64,000 nucleotides of DNA from Mesotaenium endlicherianum. Taxonomy: Eukaryota. Both the position numbers and the translations under genes were made by a program. Location: positions 78,746 through 142,745 of the forward strand of contig WELA01002258.1 of the NCBI GenBank assembly GCA_009602735.1, read 5' to 3'. The notes under the pieces were generated by a model. The model was not told the origin of the DNA, searched no databases, and saw only the letters and a program-made list of their open reading frames with translations. This document shows, piece after piece, positions 24,587 through 50,105 of the stretch (position 1 is its first letter; each line of letters starts with the position of its first letter).

Positions 24587-24600
24587 TGGTGAGCAAAGTC
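24587..24600 (+). promoter_or_regulatory. Putative primer-binding site of element A (TGGTGAGCAAAGTC)
   Basis: TGG 2 nt after the LTR-terminal CA. The same TGGTGAG start occurs in element B. Confidence 0.55.
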
Positions 24601-24786
24601 ACAGCTTAAGCCCTTACCATAGGACTACTCTGAAGATCATGATGTGCTTCCAGTGATGTTTTGGGCCATACTTCATTGGTTGTTTTCCTACCAGATTACA
24701 GTCTTGAGGTGCTCACTCTGGAGAGTACACATCCCTTACTTCTAAAAGATGTCTCTTTGCCTGCAAGCAATTAGAACCTTCAGCGT

Positions 24787-27777: not shown

Positions 27778-28261
27778 ACCCTGGCTGCGCACAAAACCCC
27801 GGCAGCAGCCCAACGCAGGCTGCCGGGGGGCCGGTTAGCCCACGCATCGGGGGGAGGGCGCTGCGATCTTTGCCCGGGGCAGCCGAGATAGACGGCGCCA
27901 CCGGTCCAGTGACCCTGCCCCTCGGCCCCAGCAGCCACCAGGGGGCGCCACCTGGCAGCCTCCTGGCAGCCCCGACCGCGCCAGCAGCTGCAGCAACTGC
28001 TGCAGCCGCGGCCGCACACGCGCCGGGGTCCGCAACTTTTGCGGCCGAACCCGCGACCGGCTGCACGGCAGGCCTTGCGGCAGGCTGCGCAAGGAGTCCT
28101 GCGGCAGACAGTGCGGCAGTTTGCGCGGCAGGCTGCGCAGCAGGCCTCGCGGCGCGCCCTGCGGCAGACAGTGCGGCAATCTGCGCGGCAGGCTGCGCGG
28201 CAGGCGCGACGGCAGTTCCCGCCACCGGCTGCGCGGCAGGCGCGGCGGCAGATCTCGCAAC
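27118..28261 (+). repeat. 572-bp near-perfect tandem duplication containing GCGGCAGGC minisatellite units
   Basis: GGGCCTAAACCCTGG at 27198 and 27770 (offset 572). The same peptide appears in two different frames. Confidence 0.9.
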
Positions 28262-28863
28262 GGGCCCCGCGGCAGGCCTCGCGGCAAGCTGCGCGCACGG
28301 CGCTGCAACAGGCCCCGCGGCAGAATGCGCGGCAGGTTTGCCGGCTGCGCCAGCAGCGGCCATTCTGGCCTGCTGCGCACGCGCGCAGCCACTCGGCAAC
28401 CGCTCCGCAGTCGGGCGCGCGAGCCGCGAGCACACGCTCGCAGCACCGGTCAGTCGGCCCGTTGTTCCGCAGAAGCGCGTCGGGCCAGACCAGGGACGAC
28501 GGACGGAGGAGGCACCGCGGTTGCCTTGTTCCTTCCGCATCCTAGAGCCCTCCACGACCTCAGCAAAGCCGACGCCACATGCGCTCACTTCGCCTATGAC
28601 GACGGTGCAGCTCAGCGCCGAGGTCATCTCTCTAGCACTGCACCGCATGCCGGCGGTCTCCTTCGCAGAGCTCGGCGTCTCCATGGAGGCAACGAGGCAA
28701 GCCGCTCAGCTAATGCTCCAGTCGCGCAGAGCCACGCTGCGCACCGCCGCCAGGAGGCCGATGGCCGATGCCGCCACCGCGGTGCGATCCACGCCCGCGC
28801 GCCGTGCGCATGAGCGCAGGATGATCAGCACTCCTAACGCCGCGTTTTTGGATAATTCGCAAG

Positions 28864-29230
28864 GGATTGTGCTCGTCAACACCCAGGCGATGCAGCGCAT
28901 CATGTTCGACACAGGCGCGCAGCCAGTTCTCATCAGCTTCCGCTACTTCCGTCAGCTAGGACTCTCTTCCGCTGACTTGGAGGACTCTCCGACGCGCATT
29001 AACACCGCCGCCGGCACGTCCGAGACCGTCGCCAGTCGCACGAGGTTGGCGCTACTGTTCACTCTGCACCCAGGCACGGCAGACGAGACAACCATCCATC
29101 GGCACGCACTCGTCACTCCTTCCGAGTCCTTCGATGTGCTCCTAGGGCAGGACGTGCTCTTTCCCATTGGCGCCGCGGTCGACAACTGGGCAGAGCGCGT
29201 CTTCTATCGTCCCGACTGGAGGACAGGGGA
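28864..29230 (+). pseudogene. Aspartic protease domain of element A
   Basis: IMFDTGAQPVLIS (DTG at 28908) and FDVLLGQDVL. Confidence 0.85.
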
Positions 29231-31266
29231 ACGCGCACCGCATCCTTGCCCCTTGACATTGCCGATCGCCGCCCAGCAGTGTCCAGCTTCATGGGGCTGG
29301 ACGATGGCCGGCCAGTGGTCAAGACCAATAAGGACGGGCCCGAGGACGAGGAGATCTCTGTGGGGGTGGACCTGCTTGAGCCACAGGACGAGGAGCCGGA
29401 CCTACCTAGTGCCGAGCTCCACCTCACGCCGCAGCAGCAGGCGGATGTCCTGGCAGCCCAGGCCAGGGAGCAGATCCGCATCTGCACTGCCCCACAGCGC
29501 GATGATGCGGCAGATGGCGGACGATGCCACTGAGGCCCTCGCCACGGCTAGCACAGCCATCGCTGCCGCCGCCCTTGCTCGCGGTGCGGTCGCAGCGCCT
29601 ACAACTCATCAGGGGGTCTCGCCCTCTCGCCGCAAGCCGTCTGCGAGGACCGACGTCCGCGTTCGCCACGACGTGCCTGTTGGCGTGGCCATTCAGTACA
29701 GTATGGACTCTCAGCCGCCCCCTCACGACGCCTCGCATCAGACCGGAAAAACCTGGCCTCGCACCACGGCATCCGAAGACGAGGCCATGCGGCAGGCAGC
29801 TTATCCTGGCAGATCCGACGACCAGTCCCTCAAGAGTGAGGAGGAGACGCAGTGGGAGCGACTGCCAGAGGCATCCGTTGAGGTACTCAGCGCGGCGCCT
29901 CCAGAGGAGCCCCCGCCAGCTGCGCCTACGGCACGCAGGCAGCGCGCACCTACTAGTCCGCCCGGCTACAGCGCACCCAGCCAGCCCATGACACACGACT
30001 GGCCCAGCAGGGCTCGCACCGACACCGCTGGACCCAGCCGTCCAGTGTCACACGACTGCTCAACGAGCCACGAGTGTCGCCGCATCGCACATTTGTTTAC
30101 GACAAGCCGGGCTGCCGTGGCCTCCTCTAGCGCTGGCACACACTCCATACAGCAGCCAGCGCCCAGGCTCAGCGTCCGCGAGCCACCCCGCACAACCCCG
30201 TCTATCTGCGCCCATCTGACCTACGCACATCGCACTTGGCCGACCATTGGACCCGCTCGAGAGACCACTCCTCTCCGCGAGACGAGCCGCTCCCGATCGC
30301 TCACACCCCTTTGCGAGACGCGAGAGGTGACTCCCCTCCGTGAGATGCGAGCCCGCTTCGTCACGCCACCCTACGACGACAAGGAGCGCACACTTCCTTA
30401 CGACGACACGCGGGCCCGCGGGGACACGTCGCCATACGACGACACTCGAGACCAACGCCGCACTCCGCCCTTCCGACCCCTCTCAGCTGGCGACAACGCT
30501 CAGTCTTCTTCCGAGGCGCATTTCGTGATGCTGGCCCCTACAGCTCCGCGCGCCAGCGTCCCTCGCAGCCACATCGCTGGCAACGGTCCCTCCGGGTCAC
30601 CTCCTCCCAAGGTGGCCCGCACCGACAGCAGGCCGCCCAGTCGTCACCCATTTACGGCCGCCGCACGCACACGGCTCATGTCTAGTCTCCGGCAGCCCCG
30701 AGACGCGCCCGTCCCACGAGGGCAGCCCCGGCCGCGAGTCCAGCTGGCCCCTCGCCGGCTAGTTCGGTCCCCGCAGGAGGTCAAAAGCTTCGAGTGCTCC
30801 GTCTGCACAATCCCCTCTGCAGACATGCGCGCACGCCAGCGGGCCTACTTCGACCCGCACCCCTACTTAACTCAGCGTTCCGTTATCGACCAGCTGGCCC
30901 ACGTGGCCTCGCACCAGACTGACCACGCCCAGCGCGACAGGTGGCAGCAGCTGTGCGTGGCCTCGGCCCGACGTCAGGCCCGCGCTGTCTCCCCGACAGC
31001 CCTGCAGGATGCGCGCCTGCGGTGGCGCACCTACCAGGACCACGTACGGGAGGAGCGTCCGCAGCCGCTCACTGACCGCATCCCCAGCCTTACGCGTGAC
31101 TACGCAGACCGTGCTGTGGCCGCCCTCCGCATGGCGCCACATCAGCACAGCGCCGAGCGTACCTTCCCGCCGCCCGCTCAGCCCGGCACCCCCGCAATGG
31201 GGTGTCGCCCACTTCCGACTCCTATCTGCGTAGACTCTCTAAGACGGTCTGGACGAGCGGCCCGGC

Positions 31267-32216
31267 GGCATCGTCCTCGTCAAGCTCTTCGCCGGCATCG
31301 CCACCGGGTTGCTCGCGACCTTACAGGCCGGCATCCCGGTGCGCCGCTACGTGTACGTCGATCCCGATCCTGAGGCCCAGCAGGTGGCCCGTCGGCAGAT
31401 GGCGTTGAGCCACGAGCGGTTCCCTGACCTCCTTCCCGCGCACGCATTCCGCCGCGCTCAGACGGACTGGCCCATGGACATCCGCGACATCACCGTCGAG
31501 CATGTCACCCGACTTGGGCCCATTGACCTCGTCATCGCCGGTTGGGAGTGCCAGGGCTTCTCCAGAGCCGGGCGTGGCAGGGCGCTCAGCGATCCCCCAC
31601 GGCCCTCTTCTGGCACTTGCTCCGCGTCCTCAACATTGGTGAGGATCGCCAGCCGCCACACACCCTCGCGTGGGTCCTGGAGAACGTGGCCGCGCGCCAC
31701 GATCGCCGTCCCGATGTTAGCGCCGACTTCGCTCTTTGCAGCAGCTACGTCGGCCGCGAGGCCGTCATTGACGCTGCCCAGATTGGTTCCTTCGCGCACC
31801 GCGTCCGCGCCTACTTCACGAACCTGGCGATGCCAGGTACTCTCGAGGCGTTGGCCGCCTCTCATCCACGTCACCCACGCACCGTCGACTCCATCCTCGA
31901 TGCCCCTCGCCTGGCCCAGCGCGTGACTGCACTACCACATCCCTCCATGGCGCAGTGTGAGGTCCTGCATGACGTCACTCGCGCGCTGCCGACTTTTGTC
32001 AGCCGCTACGACAGCGACGCCTTCGTCGGAGATCAGCGCGGGATGGTCATCGACCTGGAGACTGGCATGTTTGACAGGCCGCGCCCTGCGGAGATGGAGC
32101 GTGCCATGGGCTTCCCGCCGCATCTCACACAGGTGGACGGTCTCACTGAGGTGAAACGCATTCGCCTCTTGGGGCAGGCGATCGACGCCAACGTCCTCAC
32201 GTGGATTCTCCTGCAG
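31267..32216 (+). pseudogene. DNMT3-like C5 cytosine methyltransferase domain of element A (1-nt frameshift at ~31597)
   Basis: Motif I LVKLFAGIATGLL, motif IV GPIDLVIAGWECQGFS, motif VI WVLENV, motif VIII AHRVRAYFTNL, motif IX EMERAMGFP, motif X RIRLLGQAI. These parallel DNMT3 LSLFDGIATGLL / GPFDLVIGGSPC / ENV / AHRARYFWGNL / EMERVFGFP / RQRLLGRSW. Confidence 0.88.
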
Positions 32217-32664
32217 ACGCAGGCCTTGGCGCCTCTCTACGCCGCAGCCCGCCATTCCGAGCTGCCTTGGCCTGCCCACGATATGGACGATGACTCCATC
32301 GACGATGACAATCAGGCCCCGCCCGGCACGACGTGGCATCCTCAGCGCGCAGGGCCTGCACCGCCAGCGCGCACCCGCCCCCCCTCCCCCCCGCCGCACA
32401 GGGAGGACTCTGGTTCGCTGGGGGGGGGCCGGCGGAGAGAGGAGTCCTCACAGCGACCCAGGCCGTCCCGGTCACCTTTTCTTTTTCCTCGCTCGCAGGC
32501 AGACGGTGCCAGGCAGCTGGCCGCAGATGCCACAGTGCAGGTACCCGCGGCAGGCCGAGCGCCAATTGCTGCAGGGCAGGTGACACTTGCAGCACTACCG
32601 TCTACCCCAGCGGCAAGACAAAAGACTCCAGCTGCAAGCCAGGCGACGCCACCAGCCCCACCGA

Positions 32665-35600
32665 CATGGAAGCTGGGGGGGACACTCACCAAGGCACAGG
32701 CTGCACAGTTGACGGCACTGCTGGACGGGAGGCGCAGCACCAGCTTTGCCAGCGGCATGCACGATCTTGGGCGCTATAGGGGGGACCCCATGCGGATTAC
32801 TCTCACGTCGCAGGAGCCCATTTTCCTGAAGCGTTATCGCTATAGCCAGTTCGAGGATGGCTTGATTAGCGCGCAGACAGGCAAGCTGGAGGACAGTCGG
32901 CTCATTCGGGAGTCCTCCTCTTGCTATGCCGCACCCACGGTCATGCCAGCCAAGAAGGATGCCTCGGGCAACTTTTCCGAGAAGAGGATGTGCGGTGACT
33001 ATCGTAGGCTGAACGAGGTCACCGAGCAGGACAGATATCCTATGCCGACGCTTGGCGAGATCTTTGACGACATTGGCACGTGCACTTGGTTCTCAGTGCT
33101 GGATCTACGTCAGGGCTTCAACCAGATTCCTATCGCCGAGGAAGGACCAGCATAAGACGGCGTTCTGGGGAGCACAGCGCCTCTACGAGTGGGTGGTGAT
33201 GCCGTTTGGGTTGAAGAACGCGCCAGCTACCTTTCAGAGGGTGATGGATAAGGAGCTGGCCGGGCTGTCCTTTGCCCGATGCTACATCAATGACGTGCTC
33301 GTCTTCAGTCAGACGTTTGAGGAGCACGTGGCGCACATCACTGCTGTCCTGGACCGCTTGGAGGCCGCTGGGCTCAAGTGCCATCCAGGCAAGTGCACTT
33401 TTGGGACCCGCGAGGTGGAGTACCTTGGCCACCTGCTCTCTTCCAGCGGCTTGGCACCCCAGCTGGCGAAGATCTCGGCCATCACAGGCATCCCACCTCC
33501 TACAAATCTCTTGCAGCTGCGGGCCTTCCTCGGCATCGCCAACTACTACCGCCGCTTCGTGCCAGGGTTCAGCGAGCTAGCCAAGCCGCTCAAGGACTTG
33601 CTCCGCAAGGGCGTTGCCTACGTGTGGGGACCAGAGCAGCAGGCGGCATTTGATACGCTCAAGGAGCTGCTGGTGAGCACTCCTATGCTTTGGCGTCCTG
33701 ACTACACGAAGCCCTTCATCCTCCACACCGACTGGTCGCAGGCAGGGCTGGGCGCTGTGCTGGTGCAGGAGCATGACGGCTTCGAGCATGTGGTGGCCTA
33801 CGCCAGCCGCAGCAACAACCGCGCGGAAGGCAACTACGGCTCCTACGAGGGGGAGTGCCTGGCAGCGGTCTGGGCGATCGTGCACTTCAGGCACTATCTC
33901 TACGGCACGCACTTTCGCCTGGTCACCAACCATCAGCCACTTAAGTGGCTCATGACGTCGGAGCGCTTGAGCGGCAAGTACGCACGGTGGGCGCTTATCT
34001 TGCAGGAGTACACCTTCGACGTGCACCACCGTCCAGGCTCGACCAACCTGGACGCTGACGGTCTCAGCCGTAACCCGCTGCCCTCCTTGAGGGATCTCAC
34101 TGTGGCCCGCCACGATGAGGATGAGCCGGTGGCCTGGCACGCGGCGGCCTTCCTGGCCTTCACCGTGGACGGCGATGTGCGGCCCGCAGGGCTCACTAGC
34201 CTGGACATGGTGACCGTCATCACTCGGCAATTTGCCCTGGCAGCGGCAGAGGATCAAGACAGCTGGCAGCGCGGTCCCGAGGACGTGTGGGACGACGCCC
34301 CAGTGCTGCAGTACGTCACGGCCAAGGAGTTGGCACCCGATGTCAGCGCACGCGAGCGCGACCGCATCCTCAGGCGCAGCCGCGACTTCATTTTCATGGA
34401 CCGGCGCGTGCGGCGCGTGATGGCGGACGGCTCCGTCCTGGTGGTCCCTGAGCCTGCCATACGCAGTCAGCTGGTGCGCCGAGTGCACGAGTCCCTCGAA
34501 CACTTTGGTGTCAAGCGCACCCTTAGTCTTCTTCAGGCCGAGTACTGGTGGCACGGCATGACTAAGGTCGTCGCCGCTGTCGTCAGCAGCTGCACTCTCT
34601 GCGACCGTGTGCGCTCGAGCTTCACAGCGCGCACCGTTGCCCTCAGCCCCCTTCCTATTCAGGGGCTGATTTACAGGTGGTCACTTGACTTGGCTGGAGA
34701 GCTGCCCAAGTCTCGCCAGGGCAACCTCTACGTCTTGGTGATGATTGAGCACATGTCCAAGTGGATCGAGCTCGTGCCCTTGCCCAGCAAGGCCAGTGAG
34801 GGGATCGCTCAGGCCTTCCTCAATCAAGTCCTCAGCCGTTTTGGCGGCTGCGCTGAGGTGCTGACCGACCAGGGCAAGGAGTTCCAGGGCAGCTTTCAGA
34901 AGCTGCTGGAGCGCTCTATGATCGACCACCGCACCACCTTTTGCGTTCATCCTCAGGCTGACGGCCTCGCCGAGCGCATGGTGCAGACCGTCAAGCTAGG
35001 GTTGCGGAAGTACTGCCTTGCCCACGACCGTACCCACTGGGACGACGCCCTCCCTTGGCTAGCGATGGGGTACAAGATCAGTAAGCAGGCCTCCCTGGCC
35101 TCGCACTCGCCCTACTTCCTTCCCTACGGCCGACAGCCCATCCTGCCAGCAGCAGCCAGGATTGTGGCCGAGAACGTCTTGGACTTGGACAGTCCCGAGA
35201 CATGGAGTGCTCTTGTCGGGCAGCGTGCTCAGCTCTTTCGGCGCCTGATGCCCATGGCCATGGATAACCTCAGCATCGCACAGCATCGCGACACACTGAG
35301 GTACGCCATGACTTGTGGAGGAGCCTATCATCCGCGGGTGTTGCAGTTTTCCGCAGGTGACTTCGTGTACCTGCGACGTCAGACGAAGAACACCCTCGAC
35401 ACCAGCAGCTCGCCGGTCATCCTACGCGTCAAGCGTGCCTTGGCGTTAGGAGTCTTGGAGCTGGAAGGCGCAGATGGCCGTCTTCACAAGGACCACACAA
35501 AGAACTGTGGGCCGTGCCACCTTCCTAACCTTGACTTGCAGGTCCGTCCCCGCGACGCGCGGCCGCCCAAGGACTGGGCGTGCCAGATTTGTCACAGCAC

Positions 35601-35757
35601 TGGCCAGGTCACCAAGATGCTGCTCTGCGACAGCTGCAACCTCGGCTTCCACATCGGCTGCCTCGACCCGCCGCTGGCCCGCGTGCCAGCTGAAGACTGG
35701 TTCTGCAGAGATTGCACTGAGCTAGCCTTAGGCAGCGTACACAGCTCATCAGCTTGA
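32665..35757 (+). pseudogene. pol: RT-RNaseH-integrase-PHD part of the element A polyprotein (frameshift at ~33144; catalytic YIDD changed to YIND)
   Basis: RMCGDYRRLN, YPMP, PFGLKNAP, YIND, HTDWS, TNHQPL, HHCC (HESLEH...CTLC), DDE (LDLAG, TDQG, AERMV). C4HC3 PHD finger CQIC...LLCDSC...HIGC...WFCRDC at 35581-35715. Confidence 0.92.
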
Positions 35758-35915
35758 GGCTGAGAGCTGGGGGGGGAATTAAAACATTTTCGACTTGACT
35801 CTTTTTTTGGCTATAACGCCACATGTATTATAGACTCCATTGCAGCACAGCCTGCTTGCCTATGATGTGTTGCTTATGCCTATGATGCGCACTCGACCTC
35901 GTAACGCACGACAGT

Positions 35916-36296
35916 TGTCATGATTTATTGCGTCGAGGTTGTCATATAAAAATCAAGCTCCACATGTGCGAAACATCAACCTAGGAAGGCCGACTTTGCA
36001 TTGACTTTACGCATCCGTATGTTGACCTTTTCTAGATTTCCAAGTCACCAACGTGTAGCGCGTCAAAGCATCTTCCAAATGACACCAATTTCGCGTCATT
36101 TGGTCAAGTATCGAGCGAGATAGGTGCGATCTAGTCCGCGTCACCTACCGGGCCCTAGCGAACTTTCCCAAGGCCCAATTTGTGACTCAATGTCCCCAAA
36201 GGTGACATTGTTGGCTCTTCGTGACCCCAAGCTTTGTGCGCACAAATCCGCGAGCCCCTTAGCCTACATGGGCTTTGCATTTCCATAGTATATGTG
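35916..36296 (+). repeat. Truncated 3' LTR of element A
   Basis: Matches 23755-24136; similarity stops abruptly at TATGTG (36296). Confidence 0.9.
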
Positions 36297-37249
36297 TGCA
36301 GCGTGCTTGCTGCCTTAGCCACTTCCTTTTCCTTGTGCTGTCGAGCGTCTGCTTCCAGCAACTGCTCCATGATCTGCCTTGTAATGGATTCAGCTGTCTG
36401 ACTAGCTAAGCCCTGCTGTTGCCCCTAGCCTGCGGCTCTGGGCTCATCAAGGCAGGTGTTATAGATAATTTCTTGTCCAACTCCTCCGGGCGTTCTTGAA
36501 TATCACTTCAAGGCATATGGTCTTTGCGGCCCTCCAGAATCTCCTGAATTTTGGCTACTCTCTTCAGCCCATTCACCAATATTGCATTAGCGTTCTCGCC
36601 CTAATACTTGGTTTAGATTATATCCAATTTCTTCAGGCGTTGGCTCTGGGGTCTTATTCTCAGACTCTTCTGACATGTCTTGTAACGGCGCTTGCTCTGG
36701 TGAAGACAATGGACACTTTTGGTTAGCTTCCCAACTACTTGAGCTTTCCTGCCAGTAGTCTCCGTGCCCAGCTGCTCTTGGGCTGAGGTGGGTATCATAC
36801 TTTGATATGGCATCTTCTGGAGTCTCCTCACGTCTTGATGTTGTGGCTCCGGAAGGTGGGCTCCCAAACATCCGACTGTGAGTGGCGTTTCTCACAGATG
36901 ATGGGGTGTCCTGCGTATCGTCTTCTACTCTTGGCAGCGGCGTTGCTTGCTCAGGTGCCTGGTCCCCCTTTGGTGTATCCTCTCTTTCCAGAGGTGCTTG
37001 TAATTCATTGGTCCCGGTATCGATCTGGTCCAACAGATCCTGGCATCTCATCAATTCAGCCACCCTAGCTTCCCTGAATGCTCTGTCTCTGGCAGCTTTC
37101 GCTGCGTCTTTTTGCACACCGGATTCTTTTTGTTGCTGATGTGCCGTCTTGATAGCCCTTTGATTAGATGTTGGCACCACATGGGCCCCAATTGTCACTG
37201 GTCTTGGCCTCAACATAGGCTTGTCAGTGAAGGTCAACTGCTGCCACGT

Positions 37250-38215
37250 CATGATTGTTTCCACCAACCAAGTCATAGAGTGCTGCCCAATCATGTTGCC
37301 GAAAATCTTTGCAGCTTCATCTGACCCTACAGCACCGGCTACATGCCAAGCTATGGTGTCGGGTATTCCAAGGCATTTGCCCTTCTCCACCGCTGTAGGC
37401 TCTCTCCAAACGGCGTCTCTTTTATGCATGTCTTTGACCATTCCTTGCCCACCTTCTATGAAGGCTCGGGATCTTGGATATGTTGTGAAGGTGGGCAGTA
37501 CCACCCTTGGCTGACCTAGTTCGTTGATGACACACTTTGGATAGGAATCCCTCCTGGCCACTGGTTTGGTATGCACCGCCAGCGCCTCTACCACTGTCAA
37601 TGCCGTTGGTTATCGCCGTGTAATGTCCTCCATCTCTCTCAGGATCTCAATAGACATGCCGTTGGTCCAAAATACTCTGGCCCTATGGGATAATCCTCCG
37701 TGCTTGGCGTCGTTGATTAGCACATGATGGCCCAAAGTGACGTCGAAAATCAGCCATGGTTCTCCTGGCTTCATCTGCTTGTAATCCATTCCCGGATGCA
37801 CATTCTCAATCACAAACACTGGTGGGTAGAAGTGCCGTCGTTCCCGCAGCATGCTGATGATTGTCACCATCCATCCCCAGTGTTGTGCTCGTGGATCACT
37901 GAATCCCCTCCTGTTTCCACCTTGAGAAAACGGTTGACAAGGAAATCCAACAAAGGTCCAATCAATTTTTTAGTCATACAGGCCTTCAGGCTTCACATCA
38001 ATAAAGTTGCCTCCGGGGATGCGCTTGACATTGCTATATGCGAGCACCAACCCTTTAAAATGATGCATTTGCCGCATCTGACTCATGACTTCTCTGAATG
38101 CTAGAAAAGCGTGGTTGTCATTGTCCACATACAGGACTTTGGCCACCTGTATTCCTCGCTGGATCAATGCTATAGTCCCAGACCCAAGTCCGGCAAATAA
38201 TTCCAACACCACTAC
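37250..38215 (-). pseudogene. C5 cytosine methyltransferase domain of element B (two in-frame TAA stops at 37970-37972 and 37610-37612)
   Basis: One continuous frame: VVVLELFAGLGSG...LYVD, *KIDWTFVGFPCQPFSQGG..GFSDPR, VIENV, HRARVFWTN, WREPTAVEKGKCLGIP, FGNMI. Confidence 0.85.
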
Positions 38216-38519
38216 TTCCCTTTTGCGAAAAGGATCTTCCATCCTGACAATGCCTTGCGGCAACGGCTCAACTCCAGGCATCAGATTTGCAGTGGAGGTA
38301 ACTGGGTGGGGTACTAACAGCAACTCTTGCGGGCCGCGGTCCCTATTACTCACAGTTTCCAGCTGCTTCATGATCCGGGGTTGCCATACCAAGGGTGTTG
38401 GCATGTTGATGCTCGTATAACTTTCCTCTTTTTGCTTCATGATGTTGTTGCAGGCTTTTGGGTACCTGTCGTTAACGCAGCAGTCTAGCAGTCCATAGTT
38501 TGGTTCTCTTGTGCAAACC

Positions 38520-40957
38520 ATCTTCACAGGTATTTCTCCTGCCGACTGTCGATCTGTTGACTGGTAAGTCACCCTCCGCTTCCGCAGATCAATGACCATA
38601 CCCAAGGAGATCAGCGCTTTTGTTCGCAAGAGAACATCATAGTTCTCTGCATCCGTCACTGTGCACTCCATGAGAAGTGACGCCTCTTCAAGTTTCCCTG
38701 GCTTTACTGTGATTTTCACAGGCTTGCGGGTAATCCCGCAAGACTTTGAGACTTGTCTTGAGGCAATTCTGAACTGGAAAGGACTCTCTTTCAGGTCCCT
38801 TGCCGTCAATCCTAGAGCTTTCACAGCTCGCTTTCCCAAGATGACTGGCTGTGCGCCTGTATCCAACAGAATGTTGGGAGCTACCCAATTGTTGAAGATT
38901 AATGCACCATCCCAATTTTGCACTCTCACGGTGCTGAAATTGATGGGCAATGAGGCGCTATTTGCACCTTCTCCAGCTATATCCAGCTGATGTCCGGCTT
39001 CTTCAACCGTGCACGGGTAAGTGATATGCAAATCAGCGAGAGAAAGCAAAGAAGCATGCTGGATCTGGTGTTCCACCACGGCCTTCAGCTTCTCCAGCAA
39101 AAAACTAAATGTCTTACGCGTCCCGGGCCTGGCTTGTCGTAGCTGCGAGATCTCATTTTCATCCAGAGTGATCCGAAAAGTCTGAGGAAGCTTCCCAGCG
39201 TTCCTTGGCACCAGACGGTTGTGATCTGCTTGCTCGGCAACCGTTGCGTCCACAGCCTTTTCAAGCATCAGCTTCTCGCCTTTGCAGACGCTCTTTTCTG
39301 CAATATCTGCATCATAGTAGACATTGGGCGCATTTAGTTTCGCAAACTGAGCTTTTAACTCAGAGATTTTTACACTCATAGCTTCATACTTCTGGTTACC
39401 CTTGCCACCCTTTTCTTTCCTTTTTTCCTTGTTTGCCTCTTTCAAGGCAGCATTTGCCCATGGCGATTTTTGGGTTCTTAGACCAGCACTCATCTTGTGA
39501 GTGTCCCTTCTTGCTGCAATGTGCACATATCTACGCCTTGCTAGCAGATAGTTGCTTAGCATCTGGTTACGAACAATCCCTCTTCTGATGTCCTGATTTC
39601 CTGCAATTCCAACAGTGTTGGCATGCTTAGCAAACTTATTGAAAGACCCGCTCTTTTTCTTAAACTGAAAATTAGAGCTGTTGGCCTTAGACGGAGAGGA
39701 TTCCTACCTCCTCTCAGGAGCCATAAGCGTCCTGGAAGCCACTTTGTACGACACTCTACCTTCTTCAACATTGCGTGCTATTTCAGCCGCCTCGTCGCTG
39801 TCCCAGTCAATCCCGTGCTTTGCGGACAGATGTGGCCTGACTTCACGATCTGTTTCCTTGCCCAAGCACAACAGAAACTTGTCAGCCACTATTTTGGGCT
39901 CGTATTTTTTGCCTTTTTGGCGAGGTCTACCAATCGGGATTTAACCTCCATGACTGTCTCGTTCTTCTGACGGACAAAATGCACATAACGGTGCACCTTA
40001 AGATTGCGATCTTTTGGGAATCGTGCTTCACGCAACTTAAAGAAACGACGCAGACAATGCTCGGGGTCTAGCTAGTCATCCCCAGCCTCCATATCCTTAC
40101 AACAGCTAGCCAAGCCTTGCGCATGGCTTGCCTCTGTCGTGGCGCTATCACCTTGCTGACCCTGAAGAGGTGCAGCTCTGCGTGTTACTCAGCAATCTTT
40201 TCAGACAATTTTGCACACACCTTTCGCAATTCTGCGACAGAGCCGGCATCATCGTTCTGAGTAGCAACCCTTTGCTGACCCTCAGTGAGTTGCCTCATGG
40301 CCTCTGTTAATTCTTGTGTTAGTGCAGCTAAGTCTATGCTCTCAACAGGTGCAATTGGACTGCTCTTCCTGAAGATAAAGCAGACATTTGGGCTTTCGCA
40401 GCCTCTTCCTGGATTTTCAAATCCCTAGCCCTTTTTTGTTCTCCAATTGCCCATTCCTGGGTGAGATCCTCATTCTTCCGGAATTGGCGATATAACAGCA
40501 AGGCATCCTTGTCCAAGTACTGAACCAAGCCTATAAATGCGACAGGTTGCGTATAAGAAGAATCCTTCCGAATCTTCTCAAAGAATTCTGCCCAATAGAT
40601 CTCATCAAACTCTTCGAAAGTGAGACCGTTTCCACTGGTTCGTCCGCTAAAACACTTTGCAGACAGCTTGAACTTAGGATTTTCATCCCGATCATCACCC
40701 GCCATTTCGAACGGTGACGAGGACTCACTAACTCTACTCCACACGTCTTGCTCTCTGCCCAAATCAGGTGCAAAAGCTCGTGTGTTATCCGGGTTCTCAC
40801 CGCTTGCGGGGATATGACGAGACTCGTCGCTCGACGGTTGCTCACTCCACCGCTTGTCAGTATGCTCAGACGTCTCACCTCCTGGTGGACTTTGGCTAGA
40901 ATCAAAACCTTCTGCAGACTCCACAGAGGGGCAGAGTCTTCCACTCCTGAACCGCAT
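38520..40957 (-). pseudogene. Degenerate gag and aspartic protease of element B
   Basis: MRFRSG start at 40957. VQYLDKDAL and HFVRQKNETV align with element A MRYLSHEAR and HFFRRKNETI. Protease ILLDTGAQPVILG at 38863. Several stops and frameshifts. Confidence 0.75.
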
Positions 40958-41286
40958 ATACAGTTGGATTTCTCCGGGTCCCCTTCCAGGTTGAACACCG
41001 GCAGCCTTCACAGGCCTCAATCTCCAATTGACTCAAGAATTCTTGTTTACTTGAACCAATCAATGAGTTCTCAAAAGTAAGGCAGCGTCTTACTTCCACA
41101 CAGGCTTTCACCCAAGTTCAGGATTTACAGAATGAAAAAATATTGTGGTTTGCAGAAATCACATCTAAGCAGCTTAATTGGCAATGCCGCATTCAAAGAA
41201 AATTGCCCTTCAAGGCTTTCGCTTAACTTCCACAAGTCACAGCTTACAAAACTCTGAAATGGCACATCTATGCTGGCCTGGTCTGA

Positions 41287-42030
41287 TGAATTGAATCGAC
41301 TTACCAAATAGGCGATTAACAATTAATAAAGATCCTTATATCAGCAAGTAATCTTATGGTATTTCCGTTAACTAGTTAAACGGCAAAGGACAATACACTA
41401 GCAGGGAATAATACTCGTAAGTCAAATACGAGTAAACTAGCATCAATGATGCAAATCAGTAAACTCATACATAAGCAAGGTTAGAAGACAGTGCGTATCA
41501 ATGGCTTCTCGCCTTGGATTCAGAGTTCTCTCAGTAAGCTGTACAAGAGAGTTGGCCTCGTTTCCGAATGCCGAACTCGAGAGCAATGCCTAGCGTATGT
41601 ACATGGAATGAGTTTACTGTTCAACGGTCAGTGCGATGGCACCGCCTACCCGGGAGTTAACCACGTTGGTAGGACCTCGGTTAACCAAATCCACCGCCAT
41701 CTCCCATCATCCCGAATAGCCATCCATCATAGGGATGTCATCTGGCCATTCATCTAGCATATCGCACTTAGATGCATATCAAGGCAGTTCGCTGCTACCG
41801 AGTACGGAAGTCAGCTGGCTGTCAAAGAATGTGTCAGCAAGCTGACTTAAGTTGACTTCAGCCTGCTGCTTTTGGCCGAGTCATTAAACTGATAATTATG
41901 TAAAGTCCAGCAGACTGATTATTAACTAAAGTTCAGCAGGCTGAATACTAACTAAAGTTCAGCAGGCTGAACTAAATTAACTATTATATTTAAATGAATA
42001 TTATATCTACTAATATACTGATTCATTACA
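41287..42030 (-). repeat. 3' LTR of element C (744 bp, with an extra ~25-bp tandem unit at ~41924-41973)
   Basis: High-identity copy of 49386-50105. Confidence 0.95.
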
Positions 42031-42143
42031 ATCCCTCCAACTTAACTTGTTGTCGCCTCGACAACATTAAACTGCAAAAGCTTTAAATAAAGAAACTGAC
42101 CCTGACCAGCCTCCCTTACTGACTATCTTTTCAGCCTGTCACC

Positions 42144-43820
42144 TTAAGGGGTGGTTCCTGGGGCTTCAGGATCAGGGGACGGAGATCTGGACCTAGATCT
42201 GGACAGCCCTCTAGGTCTGTCAGCTGGCCTTCTAAAGAACCCGGTTTGCTCTAAAGTTGGACCTCGAGGAGAACGAAGGATGGTAGCCTGCTCTTCAACC
42301 ACTTGGGTGTTGATGCCCACATAGACAGGCATTCCAGTAGGATGCTGAAATACATTGGCTAGAGGTACATGCCCCTGAGCGGAGGGGGAGGCTGGCATAC
42401 CTCTGGCCCACCCGCGTGTCCCTCTTCTGGCACCCCTGTCCTCTGGGGATTTCTGTCTGTGTCTGCTGCCCAGTACAGTCAGATCAGCTTCTTCCCCTGC
42501 TTGGGCAGGTGGGCTGGGGGAGCGAGCGCGGGGTCCAGTTGTCGCCATAACGGGGATCACATTCCACACACCTGATCGTGGTTCTTTAGGAAGTGCCACT
42601 GCCTGTCCCTGGGTATCCTGAGTACCTGCTGCTGATGCTTCTCCTCTGCCTTGTTCTTCTTCCTCATCCTCCTCATCCTCCTCCTCGGAGAGAGTAGGGG
42701 TCTCGTCCACTAAGTCGTCCTGCTCCCTAGTAGACATGGAGTAGTCTACCGACCTCCCTTTCTTAGGGCGCGCTGGAGGTTGCTTGGCCTTCAGCCTACT
42801 GATATCTATCCGGCCTGCATTCTTTGCCCATTTGACAAAGGCATGCTTTCCCTTAGAGAAGTAGTCTCTTCCCCTCCTCCTATGTTCCTTGGTCTCTGCA
42901 TTCATATTGCTCAGGCATCCATTCAGCCTGGGGTCCCAAGGGGCAATGTGAGGTGGTAGGATGAGATAGCCGTCTAGGCCATAGTGGAAGTCATCCGGTT
43001 GGGCTCGGTCACACTCCTGCTTCTTATTTGTGACGGTCATCCACCTCCAGTCTGTTGGCTGCTGGTAGTACTGGGGTCCGTGCTCAGCCTTCCTCAGTTT
43101 ACACGGGAACCAGTGGGGAGAGAACATCTGCTGTCCTGCTTCCCTGGCCAAGTACTCCCAGCTCCTTCTCTCAACTTCATTGTAAGCTGGCAGGAGTGTG
43201 AGGTAGAATACCGTATCCTTAAAGCTATCGGGCCGCATGCTCACCATCCGGATGAGTCTCTGATCTCCCACTATTCCCGGTATGGGGACCGGCTTGTCCT
43301 CTGAATCATCTGCGAGATACCGGGCCTGCTCTGCTGTATAGCCCACCATCTTAGCATAATCTTCGTAAAGGACCACGCCGGTGTGTGTCTCGATGTACCT
43401 GTCCAGTGCTGTAGCTCCTTCCTTCTGTAGCAGTGTTGTCTGTTCCAGCCTGTTGATCTCCTGGGCTGCCAGCAATGCTTCCTTCAGGTTATCGAAGTTT
43501 TGGCCACCCACCACAGTATACCTGTAAGTGGCCAAGCTCTTCTGTCTGTCCGCTTCAATCTTTTTTCTTTTCTCCTCTTCTGCCGCTGCCGCTTCTTCTT
43601 GCTGTTTCTTCTGTCTCTCCTCCTCAGCCTTCCTGAGGTTTTCCGCTTCCTGATCCTTCTTCCTCTGTGCCTCTTCTGCCGCCTCTTGTTGTTTGCGGAC
43701 CCTTTCTTGTTCTCTCCTGGTGAGGGACGTCGCCGCCAGCTCCTTCTGGTATTGCTCCATTGTCCTCCTGGCTTCTTCTGCCTTGCGCTTTCTGTCCTCC
43801 TTTTGTGTGGTGGGCGCCAT
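42144..43820 (-). CDS. Element C ORF3, 558 aa, unknown function (E/K/R-rich helix, globular core, basic and acidic tracts, SR-rich tail)
   Basis: Uninterrupted ORF between pol and the 3' LTR on the element strand. ATG at 43820 lies 1 nt after a TACTAAC...TGCAG acceptor. Confidence 0.75.
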   Translation of the reverse strand: MAPTTQKEDRKRKAEEARRTMEQYQKELAATSLTRREQERVRKQQEAAEEAQRKKDQEAENLRKAEEERQKKQQEEAAAAEEEKRKKIEADRQKSLATYRYTVVGGQNFDNLKEALLAAQEINRLEQTTLLQKEGATALDRYIETHTGVVLYEDYAKMVGYTAEQARYLADDSEDKPVPIPGIVGDQRLIRMVSMRPDSFKDTVFYLTLLPAYNEVERRSWEYLAREAGQQMFSPHWFPCKLRKAEHGPQYYQQPTDWRWMTVTNKKQECDRAQPDDFHYGLDGYLILPPHIAPWDPRLNGCLSNMNAETKEHRRRGRDYFSKGKHAFVKWAKNAGRIDISRLKAKQPPARPKKGRSVDYSMSTREQDDLVDETPTLSEEEDEEDEEEEQGRGEASAAGTQDTQGQAVALPKEPRSGVWNVIPVMATTGPRARSPSPPAQAGEEADLTVLGSRHRQKSPEDRGARRGTRGWARGMPASPSAQGHVPLANVFQHPTGMPVYVGINTQVVEEQATILRSPRGPTLEQTGFFRRPADRPRGLSRSRSRSPSPDPEAPGTTP

Positions 43821-44087
43821 CCTGCACATGTAACCAGGGCACAAGTTAGTAGGATATGGACCTTTGTCATAGGGATTGCAGGAAGTATGTTAGTATTTAG
43901 TATAGTGGCTTCGCTGCTGTTTACCTTACAGGATGATTGCTAAAAGTTGACGTAGTTGCGATGCGCTACACATAAACGTATGAGTGTGTTTTTATCGCTC
44001 TCGCTCACTAACTGTCATATATTTTCCCCTCCAACTTAAATGGAGACAGGACCGCCTGTCACCTTCCCGTGTCAACTGAAATGACAG

Positions 44088-47000
44088 TTATGGAGGGACT
44101 CCAGCGGCCCGAAGGTGGAACCGTGTCAACGCCCCTTTGGCATTGGTCAAGTGGTCCTTAAACTCCCAAGTGTCCCCAGAGGCATCGTAACCCTTCCATC
44201 GAATGAGGTATTTCATGACATATTTAGACGATCGACGGACCGAGCGAGCGTCTAAAATCTCATCGACCTCATATTCCTCAGGGTCGCCGTCCCGGACAGC
44301 GGGGACCGGTCCCGGTTGGACAGGGAACCGACCTGTGAACAGTGTATCACCTTTGATGTACGGTTCCAGGAAGGAGACATTAAAGACCGGGTGCCCCTTG
44401 TATTCAGCTGACATGTTCAGTTTGTAAGCATTCTGACCGACACGACGGACCACCGAATATGGACCGACCCAGACAGGGCCAAGCTTTTTCTTGACCACAC
44501 CAGGGAGGTACAGGTGCTGAGAATGCAGTTTGACTAAATCCCCCTTGGAAAATGTCAGTTCCCGACGGTGTTGATTAGCGTATTTTTGTTGGTTTTCTTG
44601 GGCCGTGTGCAAGTTTCGTTGGACTTCTGACAGGGTGTCAGCAAACTCCTGAGTTAACTGGAGGGAGACCGGGTTGTCAATCCCTTCAGGGTGAGTTAAA
44701 GATTCCCCTAGCACATCTAGAGGAGACTTAGGGACTCTACCCAGGCTGAGTTCAAAAGGAGTTTTGCCCGTTGACGCGTGCACCGCACTGTTGACCGCAA
44801 ACTGAATTTGAGGCAACAGGTCATCCCAATTATCTTGTTTTTGGTTAATATATGCTCTCAGCACCTCCTGCAGAACTCGGTTAGTTCTTTCAGTCTGCCC
44901 ATCAGTCTGAGGGTGGTTTGCTGTGCTGAGCAGCTGTTTGACTCCCATTAACCCCATTAAAGCTCTCCAGAACTTAGAGGTGAATTTTGAGTCTCTGTCT
45001 GAGATGATATTAGAAGGGAGCCCATGTTGGCATACTACATGGTTGTAAAACTGTCTCGCTGTTTCGAGTGCAGTCACTTTGACAGTTGTGGGGATAAAAA
45101 TGACCATTTTTGTCAGTTTATCCACGACTACCAGTATTGAATCATGCCCGTTGGCAGTTCTTGGTAGTGAGACCACCCAGTCCATGGATATAGTTTCCCA
45201 GCGTCCCGCTGGGATGGGTAGCGGTTGCAAGAGACCTCCGGGTGGTGTGTGCCGAGACTTATTTCTCTGACACTGGTCACAGGACTTGACATATTTCAAG
45301 ACCTCCCGGGGTAACCCCTCCCAATGATAATGTTTTGCCAGTTTGCCAACAGTTTTGGCCTGCCCCAAATGTCCACCCAGGAGACTGTCATGAGCTTGAC
45401 TCAGTAAGAGAGACCTTATTTCCAAATTATTAGGAATGACCAGCTTCAGCCTGCCTGAAGTGGTTTCAGTCACCCAGACCCCTCCCTTGAGCTTATACCC
45501 GAGTGCGGTAGCACGACACATACCAGTAGTGGGGCTGGGCTCAAATGTTGGGTCAGAAAGGTAGGCTTTCCTAAGTTGTTCAAGGAAGGACTTTTTCACC
45601 TTTAGTGAAGTGAGTGCACACAGGACTTTATCTACAGCATGCTGACTAAAGTTCCTTTCTTGCAAGTCAGGTCTTCTAGAGAGTGCATCAGCAGGATTCA
45701 ACTTCCCTGGTTTGTAGTCGATCTGGACTTGGAACTGCTCCAGCATCTGGCTCCAGCGGTTCTCCCTCCTCGACAGCTTGGACTTCTTCTGAAAGTGGGT
45801 CAGAGCTAGATGATCTGTAATCACCTTAAAAGCTTTACCATGTAAGTATGCTCTCCACTGTTTGAGTACATGAATGATAGCTAGCAGCTCTTTATCATGC
45901 ACTGAGTAATTAATCTCCGCTGGATTAAATTTCATAGACTCATACAACACAGGATGCCACTCCTGCCGTACCTTACCATCCTTTGTGGTTTTGTCAGCAG
46001 GCTGCAACAAAATAGCACCCATGGCAAAATCAGAGGCATCAGTAACCACCTGCACCGGTTTGCTGGGGTCATACACGGCTAGCACTGGGGCAGAACAAAG
46101 GGCATCTTTAAGGGTCTGGAAGGCAGCCTGCTGCTCTTCCCCCCACACATACCCGATGTCTTTCTTAGTAAGGTCAGTCAGTTTACTGGCCTTTGTGGAA
46201 TAATTCTCAATAAATCTCCTATAGTAGTTAGCCAACCCGAGGAAGGATCTAACTTCAGAGACAGACTGTGGTACTGGCCAGTCCCTTATGGTCTGGACTT
46301 TCTTAGGATCCACACTGATGCCCTCTTTACTGACAACGTGGCCTAAGAATTCAATACTTTCCTTAAAGAAATCACACTTGCTCATTTTAGCATACAAGTG
46401 ATTTTTCCGCAGAGTGTCCAGCACTTTCTTTAAGTGTTCAGTGTGCTGAGCTTCATCTTTAGAGAAAATTAAAATATCATCCAGGAAAACTTGCACAAAC
46501 TTATCCAAATAAGGTCTGAAAATGTCATTCATAGCACCCATAAAGGTAGCAGGAGCATTAGTCAGTCCAAATGGCATCACGTTGAACTCATAGTGTCCAT
46601 AACGTGTGCGGAAAGCAGTCTTGTGTTCATCCCCCTCAGCAATTCTGATTTGATGATAACCACTCTTGAGATCTATCTTACTGAACACCTTAGCGCCAGA
46701 CAGGGTATCAAGCAAGTCCTCGATTCTGGGTAAAGCATACTTGTTCTTTACTGTAATTCTGTTCAGGGCTCTGTAATCCACACACATCCGCATACTGCCA
46801 TCCTTTTTCTTAACAAATAGGATAGGTGCGCCGTACGGTGATTTACTGGGAGAAATGTAACCATTTTCCTCCAGCTCTGCAATCTGTGTTTTCAACTCCT
46901 CACTCTCCAAATAAGACAAGCCATACGTGCGTTGCCAGGGTGGCTGGCTACCAGGTAATAAATCAATCCTATGATCTACTTCCCGCTTAGGGGGTAGTCC

Positions 47001-47897
47001 TGGAGGCATATTAAACACATCCGTGTACTGAGCAACAATGTTTGCAGCAGTAGGGTGTTCCGGAGGGTGTACCTTTTTCTCAACCACTTCTTCAGGTTGA
47101 GGAGGTACCTCTCTTAGCAGCAGACAGAACATTCTGTCTTCCTTCTGGTTCCAGCTTTTGACGAACTCCATTGCATTCAGCAACTTGCATCCTTCTGGAA
47201 GCCTCTTCTTTTCCTTCATTTGCCATCCACACAGGACAAGAGGAAGAGCACTGGTGGGTGCCAAGTCAGTCTGCCCATCACTGGCTCCTCTCACTTTAAC
47301 TGTACCTCTGCTCCAACACACTTCAGCTTGATGTCTATTAAGCCAGGACCTGCCTAGCACGAGATCATAAAAGCCAGTGTTGAGTACCTCAAATGTAAGC
47401 GTTTCAGTTAGAACTGCAATGCCAGAACCTAACTGGACCTCAATAGGCTTGGTTATAACTCCTCCCGGGATACTTGAGGCATCTCCAAGGAATATTTTTC
47501 TATTCCCTTGGGTGACAGTAGGCAGCCTTAGCCGCTTAACTAAGTCCTTGTGAATAAAAGTATGTGACGCCCCTCCGTCAACAAATGCCCTCACCTTCCT
47601 ACCTGCAATCATGCAATGCAGTAGGATAGGGGGGACTGTCTTTTCCTGACTTTCGCATTGTTCTCCTGACGTAGCAAAGAAATGTTGGACATCAGGTGGA
47701 ACAAGAGCATCCAGAGTGTGCACTCTCTGGACGTCTATATTGCTGATGGTCTCCTTTATCTGGTTGTCAGGCATGCATAGTGAATCCAGTTCAGCAGGAC
47801 CCATAATACCTGCTACGAGGGCAGCTAGTGACGACTCACTATCTCTAGCATCCTCACAGTCAGTAGACTGGATTACTGACTGTTGCTGTCTTTTAAA
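44088..47897 (-). CDS. pol: Pol of element C: protease-RT-RNaseH-integrase-chromodomain, entered by -1 frameshift
   Basis: [36 protein letters not shown] (MDWV, SDRD, TERTN), GPY motif, chromodomain YEVDEIL...[16 protein letters not shown]. No stops. Confidence 0.96.
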
Positions 47898-49351
47898 GGC
47901 TGGTCTTTTCTCTCGACCTTAGGCAGGTGCTTGACCGGACACTGTTCTCTGTAGTGGCCTTTCTGCTGACAATGGTAGCAAGTAGATTTTGCTGAGGCTG
48001 GTCTCGGCTTAGTCCTACCACCACCCCTTCCATAGCCACCTCGAGAGGGACCACCTCTACCTCTAGACTGAATAGCATTGTACTCATACTCATATTCATC
48101 ACCCTGATTATCCTCAGCCTGGTCTCCTTCAACTGCATTGTAGGAACCGTGGGGCTTTTTGACAATCTTTGACACCAAAGCGTTACTCTGGCGCTTGTGA
48201 TTGAACTGCTGCTGATCCCAGGCGTCAGCATCCTGGATCAAGTCAGCCAGTTTCTCATACTTTTTCTCAGCAAAATGACCAGAGACCTCGGATTTCAAGC
48301 CATACCTGAAGTATGCTATCCTATACCGTTCTGGCAAATCAGGCTGCTTCATCATGTTCTCTTGGAACTTTTGAGCAAACTCAGCAACTGAAGTGGTCTG
48401 CTTCAGTGTCAGGGAGATCATCGCATAGATAGCTTTCTCCTGCTGGTTGATGACATCAAACTTCTCATGCAACTTCTCGACAAACTCTACCCACGTAGGG
48501 TCACCGAGTTGCCGAGCCTTACGCTCTTCCTTCCAGTAAAGCCACCAGTCTGCGGCACTGCCTTTCAGTAGCGCACCGGTGTGCCTGACCTTCTCGTAAT
48601 CTTGCAGTTCTGGGTAGTTCTCCAGCCACTGCTCAACATCCGCGAGAAACTTGATCAGGTAATATTTTCTGTTTCCCTCAGGATCATAGTCCTGGGGAGG
48701 TTTCGGCTTGGGCTTACTAGGCCCTCGGCCACCACCACTAGTGGTGTGAGACCCCAGTTGGTCTCTGTCCCGGAGTAGGGACATTATGATTCTTTTGTCC
48801 TCCTGCTGGGACTGATACATGGTCGCCATTTGCGACTGCATCTGAACGAACAATGCTCCCAAGTCTACATTTTGGGGTGGTAGATTAGCAAATGCAGCAG
48901 CAGCATTGGCATCTACTCGCTGAGTAGTGTCCTCAACAATCCCTCTTGCTCCTGCAGCAGCAATTCCTGCCGCATTCAGCCGGTCACGTATTTGACCTAG
49001 GGGTACATTGAGTTGTACGGCAGGAGGTGGGTTCAGAACATTGGCCCTTGATGCCATAAGTTCTTCAACAGTGCGCTCGTCAGCTGGCTGTCCTTCCCTC
49101 CTTTGTATATCTTCAGCGGCCTTTGCTACTTGTTCAGCTTCTAGTCTGGCTATCTCCTCCTCAGCTTGCTGAGCTGCGACTGAGGCAATAGCAGCTGCCT
49201 CATCTGCAGCCTCCCTAGCTGCAGTATCCGCTACTGCTTCCGAATAGGTACGGTTTCCCGCTACATGGCTTTCCGCCTGGTTTTCGACATTCTCGTTATC
49301 CTGGTTCTCCATGTCTCGGGAGTTGCTAGTTTGAGACCTTGTCCTTACCAT
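47873..49351 (-). CDS. gag: Gag of element C
   Basis: MVRTRSQ start, capsid-like LKGSAADWW / SVAEFAQKF / FRYGLK, knuckle [14 protein letters not shown]. Confidence 0.93.
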
Positions 49352-49372
49352 ACAAAGAAGACTGTGATAACT

Positions 49373-49384
49373 GCTCCGATACCA
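49373..49384 (-). promoter_or_regulatory. Primer-binding site complementary to the initiator tRNA-Met 3' end
   Basis: TGGTATCGGAGC, one mismatch to the canonical TGGTATCAGAGC, 1 nt after the LTR end. Confidence 0.9.
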
Positions 49385-49385
49385 C

Positions 49386-50105
49386 TGAAATGAATCGACT
49401 TACCAAATAGGCGATTAACAATTAATAAAGATCTTTATATCAGCAAGTAATCTTTATGGTATTTCCGTTAACTAGTTAAACGGCAAAGGACAATACACTA
49501 GCAGGGAATAATACTCGTAAGTCAAATGCGAGTAAACTAGCATCAATGATGCAAATCAGTAAACTCATACATAAGCAAGGTTAGAAGACAGTGCGTATCA
49601 ATGGCTTCTCGCCTTGGATTCAGAGTTCTCTCAGTAAGCTGTACAAGAGAGTTGGCCTCGTTTCCGAATGCCGAACTCGAGAGCAATGCCTAGCATATGT
49701 ACATGGAATGAGTTTACTGTTCAACGGTCAGTGCGATGGCACCGCCTACCCGGGAGTTAACCACGTTGGTAGGACCTCGGTTAACCAAATCCACTGCCAT
49801 CTCCCATCATCCCGAATAGCCATCCATCATAGGAATGTCATCTGGCTATTCATCTAGCATATCGCACTTAGATGCATATTAAGGCAATTCGCTGCTACCG
49901 AGTACGGAAGTCAGCTTGCTGTCAAAGAATGTGTCAGCAAGCTGACTTATATGGACTTTCAGCCTGCTGCTTTCGACTGAGTCAGCAAACTGATAATTAT
50001 GTAAAGTCCAGCAGACTGATTATTAACTAAAGTTCAGCAGGCTGAACTTAATTAACTGTTATATTTATATGAATATTATATCGACTAATATACTGATTCA
50101 TTACA
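49386..50105 (-). repeat. 5' LTR of element C (720 bp)
   Basis: TGTAATGAATC...ATTTCA on the minus strand; adjacent to PBS and TSD. Confidence 0.95.

Follow-up and report, generated by a model that had tools for sequence, protein, structure and literature searches.

The window analysed here is a stretch of 64,000 nucleotides of Mesotaenium endlicherianum (assembly GCA_009602735.1, contig WELA01002258.1, positions 78,746 to 142,745 of the forward strand). Its main subject is element B, a minus-strand retrotransposon copy in which a cytosine DNA methyltransferase (DNMT) domain follows an aspartic protease. A second DNMT-carrying element, A, abuts one end of B, while element C, a Gypsy element with long terminal repeats (LTRs) but no DNMT, is nested in the 5′ leader of B. 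The features are collected in Table 1.

Table 1. Features of the window; positions are counted from its first nucleotide (RT, reverse transcriptase; PR, protease; TSD, target-site duplication)
Feature	Position	Strand	Basis or remark
Premature TAA stop 1 of element B	37970..37972	-	Private to this copy; other letter in contigs
Premature TAA stop 2 of element B	37610..37612	-	Private to this copy; other letter in contigs
Element B gag remnant spread over three frames, with two CCHC zinc knuckles at its end (39629-39414)	39414..40709	-	Three-frame translation, profiles, tblastn to A
Element B aspartic protease (DTGAQPV)	38561..38923	-	Pfam gag-asp_proteas E 4e-4 (below cut-off); 32% to A protease
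Element B DNMT3-type C5 cytosine methyltransferase (predicted)	37250..38215	-	Motifs, Pfam, profiles, model fold
Element B post-DNMT tail	36301..37249	-	Covered by family contigs; no Pfam match
Element B 5′ leader, split by insertion of element C and resuming at 50111	41033..41281	-	TSD TCTGA flanking C; contig loose ends
Element A, gag-PR-DNMT-RT-RNase H-integrase-PHD, frameshifted, no TSD	23755..36300	+	Pfam, translation, repeat search
Element C, DNMT-free Gypsy LTR element with chromodomain, inserted in B leader	41287..50105	-	LTRs 696 matches, 22 mismatches; TSD TCTGA
Solo C-family LTR in the opposite orientation to C	50413..51132	+	Repeat search; TSD CTTAG

Three stop-to-stop open reading frames (ORFs) on the minus strand, 37970–39703, 37610–37969, and 36587–37609, proved to belong to a single frame (39703–36587), and reading through it with X at TAA gave 1038 residues interrupted by exactly two TAA codons. 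An earlier note made from the letters of this DNA had proposed such a broken frame, and had also placed the catalytic GFPCQPFS in an untranslated gap; the motif indeed lies at 37948–37925, within the 37871–37969 interval between the ATG-based ORFs. The idea that premature stops hide a whole family, on the other hand, did not hold, as both stops are confined to this copy and the other copies are open. In contigs of the public sequencing runs described below, the site of the first stop carried a non-stop letter in 13 contigs (summed depth 2620/2620) and that of the second in 26 contigs (15379/15459). A single-base assembly error may lie behind a given stop, although this copy carries 14 private differences in 461 bp, which follow a neutral pattern. 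Decoding of TAA as a residue under an alternative genetic code was rejected because the Pol of element C spans 1276 codons without a stop and because other family B copies lack both stops. As a locus, this is an unremarkable dead copy, decayed and 3′-truncated.

A gag region with CCHC knuckles followed by an aspartic protease is present in element B; the Pfam scores were below the cut-offs and the assignment comes from homology to A and to the relatives. The gag pieces are distributed over three frames and the knuckles are off the protease frame, which means that gag does not begin at the ATG at 39562. The knuckles scored 17.5 bits with Pfam zf-CCHC (below cut-off), a gag profile of 11 relatives matched at 40053–39862 (19.4 bits) and 39629–39414 (20.9 bits), and the read-through gave weak scores with three Pfam aspartic protease models. 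The DNMT, in frame with the protease, was detected by Pfam DNA_methylase with 50.6 bits (cut-off 22). Its motifs follow the linear I–X order: ELFAGLG, VDND, GFPCQPFS, ENV, HRARVFW, and EKGKCLG/FGN, which we take to be motifs I, II, IV, VI, VIII, and IX–X, respectively. The tail behind the DNMT stays open for ~220 codons until a third TAA (36587), beyond which its frames are broken; it matched no Pfam model and no tail of any relative. The copy ends at 36301, directly at the 384-bp terminal repeat of element A and with no target duplication.

The sequences of A and B were then compared. At the protein level (tblastn), the proteases share 32% identity over 121 aa (E 2e-15), the DNMTs 31% in the N-half (E 4e-9) and 23% in the C-half (E 6e-7), the knuckles 31% (E 1e-5), and the gag 27% (E 0.018). 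At the DNA level, the best blastn match at word size 7 was 25 bp (E 0.015). GC content is 48.9% in B versus 66.0% in A, and GC content at third codon positions 0.53 versus 0.74–0.85. The earlier note's statement that the two elements lack evident nucleotide similarity while B has a lower GC content was therefore correct, as was the sharing of DTGAQPV, which was found in the translated sequences of both B (LLDTGAQPVILG) and A (MFDTGAQPVLIS). Its claim that gag, protease, and DNMT are positioned as in A stood as far as order (gag-knuckle-protease-DNMT in both) and homology are concerned, but the gag of B is in other frames. The label "Gypsy" rests, in the case of B, on its relatives, because RT, RNase H, and integrase are all missing from this copy. 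The order PR-RT-RNase H-integrase, with a Gypsy-clade RT, was seen in A and in the relative P0016 and is missing from the truncated B copy.

Relatives were collected by phmmer with B as query among 1.84 billion representatives, 420 of which matched at E ≤ 1e-3 and 151 at E ≤ 1e-10. The layouts of 155 relatives were protease-DNMT (22), DNMT-RT (3), DNMT after RT or RNase H (56), DNMT-integrase (15), DNMT alone (56, four being distant bacterial-type enzymes), and other (3). P0016 contains gag-PR-DNMT-RT-RH-INT (RH, RNase H; INT, integrase) in one protein. Eight of the 30 relatives looked up had an organism name: Closterium (4), Klebsormidium nitens, Mesostigma, Coleochaete, and Scenedesmus. The DNMT stands after the protease or before the RT in those from Closterium (4), K. 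nitens, and Mesostigma, while the Coleochaete relative has a protease only and the Scenedesmus one has the DNMT after RNase H. This latter arrangement, with DNMT after RT/RNase H and often RT-RH-DNMT-INT-PHD, was found in P0063/P0169 (Scenedesmus sp. PABB004), P0026, P0030, P0079, and others. All 79 rows of this kind formed one clade of the DNMT tree (support 98), which included none of the 25 protease-DNMT rows, and in the RT tree 41 after-RNase H elements formed one side (95). Members of the same DNMT family also occur in P0144, P0200, P0202, and P0204, which show the non-LTR-type layout OTU-RT-PHD-PCIF1-like adenine methyltransferase-DNMT-RNase H. The presence of the DNMT after RNase H and in a non-LTR element indicates that the module can move. 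Other searches with B were less productive: a pattern search with its DNMT gave 16 metagenome-contig matches, none confirmed and none in viral contigs, and word-indexed protein searches returned 0 of 1406 candidates and 2 of 7991, while 4 distant full-length matches out of 1164 served as the bacterial-type outgroup.

As a separate observation, the four non-LTR proteins combine two methyltransferases in one long interspersed element (LINE)-like element; in its accessible text, PMC4738411 mentions PCIF1-like domains only in DIRS1 elements.

To judge from its sequence, the DNMT of B is a member of the retrotransposon DNMT3 family. A whole-domain profile of 145 relatives, from which A and B were left out, scored B at 204 bits, A at 340, and four bacterial enzymes at 41–52, and the match of B to the retrotransposon DNMT profile was full length, including the target-recognition region. 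With a profile of B and 56 relatives, DNMT3A scored 96 bits, DRM2 53, and HhaI 46. The AlphaFold model of the domain (pLDDT 86.6) had DNMT3C/3B as its top four Foldseek matches. The DNMT of A is 31–37% identical to domains of Klebsormidium, Closterium, Scenedesmus, and Mesostigma and only 23% to that of B; the domains of Closterium and Mesostigma, and even that of Scenedesmus (33–37%), resemble it more than does its neighbor in the same window. Before trees were built, 25 of 170 DNMT-bearing proteins (<250 aa) were dropped; 6 near-duplicates of 19 were removed for the protease/DNMT comparison, near-duplicate cluster members for the RT/DNMT comparison, and P0018 for the test of an A+B clade. 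The protease and DNMT trees of 15 elements shared their supported groups and agreed better than expected by chance (Mantel rho 0.40, 33/2000), and the RT and DNMT trees of 45 elements, including A but not B, were likewise in agreement (rho 0.51, 0/1000). An A+B clade was absent from the tree, yet p-AU was 0.175, thus it was not rejected.

These data bear on the evolutionary claim of the earlier note, which saw an old DNMT capture retained by selection and named two DNMTs from unrelated clades as what would speak against it. The DNMTs of A and B were not independent captures of that sort, since both match the shared profile far above the bacterial enzymes, and the congruence of the DNMT, protease, and RT trees that it had called for was obtained, with B contributing to the protease comparison. 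Deep divergence of A and B together with the tree agreement supports an old capture, and retention by selection is backed by purifying selection in B (below). The data do not establish a split of A and B within the host lineage, nor a strictly vertical retention, as the module can move.

Copies of family B were read from contigs of four public runs belonging to two studies. In two runs, all 30 bins were covered, with summed depths over element B of about 7,000–52,000 as against 45–82 for single contigs. Summed contig depth is not a copy number; its excess over single-contig depth nevertheless indicates that many family B copies exist, which are 80–99% alike. In the 37560–38020 segment (461 bp), 39 listed differences were recorded, comprising 14 near-fixed against this copy and 25 varying among copies. 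At the polymorphic sites 17/25 were synonymous, while at the private sites of this copy 3/14 were synonymous and 11 were not, as expected for neutral decay. The synonymous excess was significant (Fisher p 0.008; binomial p 3e-5, the expected synonymous share being 0.28; omega roughly 0.18), and because differences among copies are mostly synonymous, we concluded that the DNMT core of family B is under purifying selection. Among RNA runs, X8 had 2 reads that fitted the same segment in part, whereas X11 and X14 had 0 each, with 6–24% of each run covered and no control gene.

Considering these results, element B is very probably a decayed, 3′-truncated copy of a multi-copy, likely Ty3/Gypsy retrotransposon family with a DNMT3-type methyltransferase right after the protease. 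It is a very divergent member of the streptophyte Gypsy-DNMT3 kind already known from green algae. The explanation that we favor as a whole, with fair but clearly lower confidence, is a DNMT-carrying, likely Ty3/Gypsy family whose enzyme would methylate its own new DNA copies; taken alone, catalytic self-methylation by the family B DNMT is about an even call. According to this scheme, intact family B members would have RT, RNase H, and integrase further downstream, as do A, P0016, and P0007. The DNMT would be translated within Pol and cut free by the protease, and the freed enzyme would be packaged in the particle and methylate CG in the element cDNA around integration. This retrotransposon lineage would have captured the DNMT a single time, in the distant past, A and B representing deep, separate branches. 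Several observations weigh against this scheme and are considered here together with the alternatives that they touch; the first two concern the count of synonymous sites, which covered one segment in one run by summed contig depth and included no control region, and run X1, which may be the source of the window itself.

Could the DNMT of B stem from a separate event, having been taken up from a bacterial or viral enzyme or swapped in as a module from another retroelement? When B alone was compared with PDB, the best match was the bacterial HaeIII (E 4e-6), DNMT3 reaching only E about 0.5, and in Foldseek DNMT3 was only narrowly ahead of HhaI. The FastTree analysis joined B to the bacterial outgroup, the end branch of its DNMT (1.62) was among the longest of 151 rows, and its identity to anything sampled was ≤30%; moreover, the relatives had been gathered with B itself as query, and a non-LTR element as well as other positions within elements are known sites of the module. 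However, the join was flagged by the tool as long branches meeting, the protease of B also has a long branch (1.06 versus a median of 0.62), the family profile matched over the full length with 204 bits against at most 52, and the position of the DNMT and its flanking domains are as in A. A separate capture is therefore very improbable.

Against the proposed intact structure stands the failure to find the remainder of the element. When the window was searched with an RT-RNase H profile of the relatives, A and C were the sole elements matched, no integrase of B was found in this copy, and neither LTRs, a primer-binding site, a polypurine tract, nor a TSD of B was found in the window, where the 3′ end is lost and the 5′ leader is broken by two insertions; no repeat of the B leader or end occurs within the window either. 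Only 2/22 protease-DNMT proteins extend to the RT in the same protein. Family B might accordingly be a nonautonomous gag-protease-DNMT element that never had an RT, relying on a partner, for instance A, for RT and integrase while supplying an intact methyltransferase. No RT appears over at least 280 codons after the B DNMT, compared with a gap of 120–155 aa in P0016, P0007, P0087, and P0125, and the best two matches of B, P0010 and P0009, with which it groups weakly (38/81), have terminal tails of about 160 and 480 aa that lack an RT. Nevertheless, the cut that ends B at 36301 shows no TSD and thus does not mark a natural terminus; in A itself, a linker of ~230 codons plus frameshifts separates the DNMT from the RT; proteins predicted on decayed or truncated contigs are frequently too short; and the tail of B resembles that of no relative. 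We consider an RT-less family unlikely, and the 3′ half of this copy was presumably removed by a deletion at the end of element A. Insertion of A into B was rejected as there is no TSD and no continuation of B in the left flank of A, a region (22400–23755) where six-frame searches gave no convincing Pfam or RT match. By eye, a decayed frame in this flank (23200–23753, minus strand) beginning with YLYFDGS resembles the start of an RNase H; it has no Pfam match.

The enzymatic role of the domain, too, has evidence on both sides. Motif IV of the 145 relatives reads E-C in 78 and P-C in 45, A having the former (GWECQ) and B the latter. The observed/expected CpG ratio is 0.59 in B, 0.94 in A, and 0.42–0.50 in the DNMT-free element C, so depletion does not track the DNMT, and CpG depletion as a sign of self-methylation was rejected. 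In addition, the KnitGypsy-Dnmt3 domain of Klebsormidium was inactive in yeast, a result called inconclusive by its authors (PMC5890265, cited throughout from its accessible text). These points would suit a DNMT kept not for methyl transfer but for a noncatalytic function, for example to bind DNA or chromatin on behalf of the integration complex or to shield the cDNA. In contrast, B keeps FAGLG, PCQ, ENV, and HRARVFW, with the RxR arginines, and the catalytic Cys, Glu, and both Arg (C108, E152, R193, and R195) are invariant or at least 90% conserved in a 57-row alignment, while the related SymbioDIRS-Dnmt3 domains of a dinoflagellate methylate CG in yeast (PMC5890265). A purely noncatalytic role thus appears improbable, and self-methylation of new copies is retained in the favored scheme.

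Among the neighbors, element A has 384-bp terminal repeats (TG..CA; 372 matches, 11 mismatches), and ~670 codons separate its protease and DNMT. It also contains an internal 572-bp duplication (27118–28264). Its end (35779–36300) consists of a polypurine-tract-like run, a 138-bp block, and the 384-bp repeat, and contigs diverge at 35913–35916. This end may be of the split-repeat type described in PMC5890265: with respect to the A-coding-B-A-B pattern of repeats, repeat A is present twice, while neither a second B repeat nor another copy of the last block was found in the window. Element C is nested in the leader of element B, and in contigs of other copies the sequence beyond 41281 resembles that at 50111 (loose contig ends at 41281/41286 resemble the sequence just past 50110), which makes B older than C. 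The solo LTR of the C family probably also lies inside the B leader. After its Pol, element C has an extra ORF of 581 codons (43889–42144, minus strand) with no credible Pfam match. Outside the elements, a host oxalate-CoA ligase-like gene (about 12300–16650, plus strand; PDB 5ie0, E 2e-107) is directly upstream of a gene for a thiamine pyrophosphate (TPP) enzyme (17900–22396, plus strand). The latter looks like an oxalyl-CoA decarboxylase/2-hydroxyacyl-CoA lyase, in which case consecutive steps of oxalate breakdown are encoded side by side. A 1.6-kb AT-rich repeat family is present in several copies at 52146–53789 and 59316–62228, with an inverted pair centered near 60600.

The closest described system is KnitGypsy-Dnmt3 of K. 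nitens (de Mendoza et al. 2018, PMC5890265), which has a DNMT3-related domain in a Gypsy-type element (in Pol there, in the protease frame in B), conserved catalytic residues, and purifying selection (Ka/Ks < 0.2 among copies); retention of a DNMT by selection is thus already published for Klebsormidium. The K. nitens protein GAQ93235 (P0013) shows the gag-knuckle-PR-DNMT order of B and matches it across protease and DNMT (E 2e-32). In contrast to that system, another family of equal distance (A) coexists with B in one genome, the AT content of B is much higher than that of A, this copy lacks RT and termini, and identity to the K. nitens protein is just 26% for the DNMT and 27% for the protease. 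The ends of element A look partly compatible with the DIRS-like split repeats (A-coding-B-A-B) of KnitGypsy-Dnmt3. SymbioDIRS-Dnmt3 and SymbioLINE-Dnmt of Symbiodinium are also retrotransposon-borne C5 DNMTs, and the elements are described as old, with many subfamilies, purifying selection, and congruent RT and DNMT trees; they differ in having a DIRS or LINE backbone and, in the accessible text, no aspartic protease-DNMT fusion as in B, and CG activity was shown for SymbioDIRS-Dnmt3, whereas B is known from sequence alone (PMC5890265). The EpiLTRs of Euglena and Cymbomonas are LTR retrotransposons with a DNMT domain as well, but this domain is sister to DNMT4 and is accompanied by DAM and a chromodomain (bioRxiv 10.64898/2026.05.21.726589). 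In the remaining part of B no Pfam match to DAM or a chromodomain was found, and its DNMT appears DNMT3-type, unlike that of EpiLTRs. The same preprint, in its accessible part, treats the streptophyte Gypsy-DNMT3 as known and distinct from EpiLTRs, and PMC12344493 and PMC6338049 restate its existence. No literature on the RNase H-DNMT-integrase-PHD layout or on coexisting deep families was found, figures (Fig. 4c of PMC5890265), some supplements, and subscription papers being outside reach.

A broader scenario can be put forward only tentatively, as we regard it as rather doubtful: one DNMT3 module would have been present in green-lineage retroelements before the streptophyte/chlorophyte split and selected ever since, relocating from time to time (after the protease in A and B, between RNase H and integrase in the PHD clade, and beside the PCIF1-like domain in the non-LTR elements), with B as the deepest surviving branch, possibly an RT-less helper supplying active enzyme to partners. 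The Gypsy-DNMT3 group is in any case far wider than one published species, comprising hundreds of 50% clusters with the domain at more than one position. Why retrotransposons keep a cytosine methyltransferase of their own is a standing question, and the sole tested streptophyte domain was inactive in yeast (PMC5890265). B retains the canonical P-C motif where most relatives and A carry E-C instead. The multi-copy, selected family B, the GC-rich and non-CpG-depleted A, and the DNMT-free C, all in one genome, offer a natural three-way comparison for methylome and activity studies.

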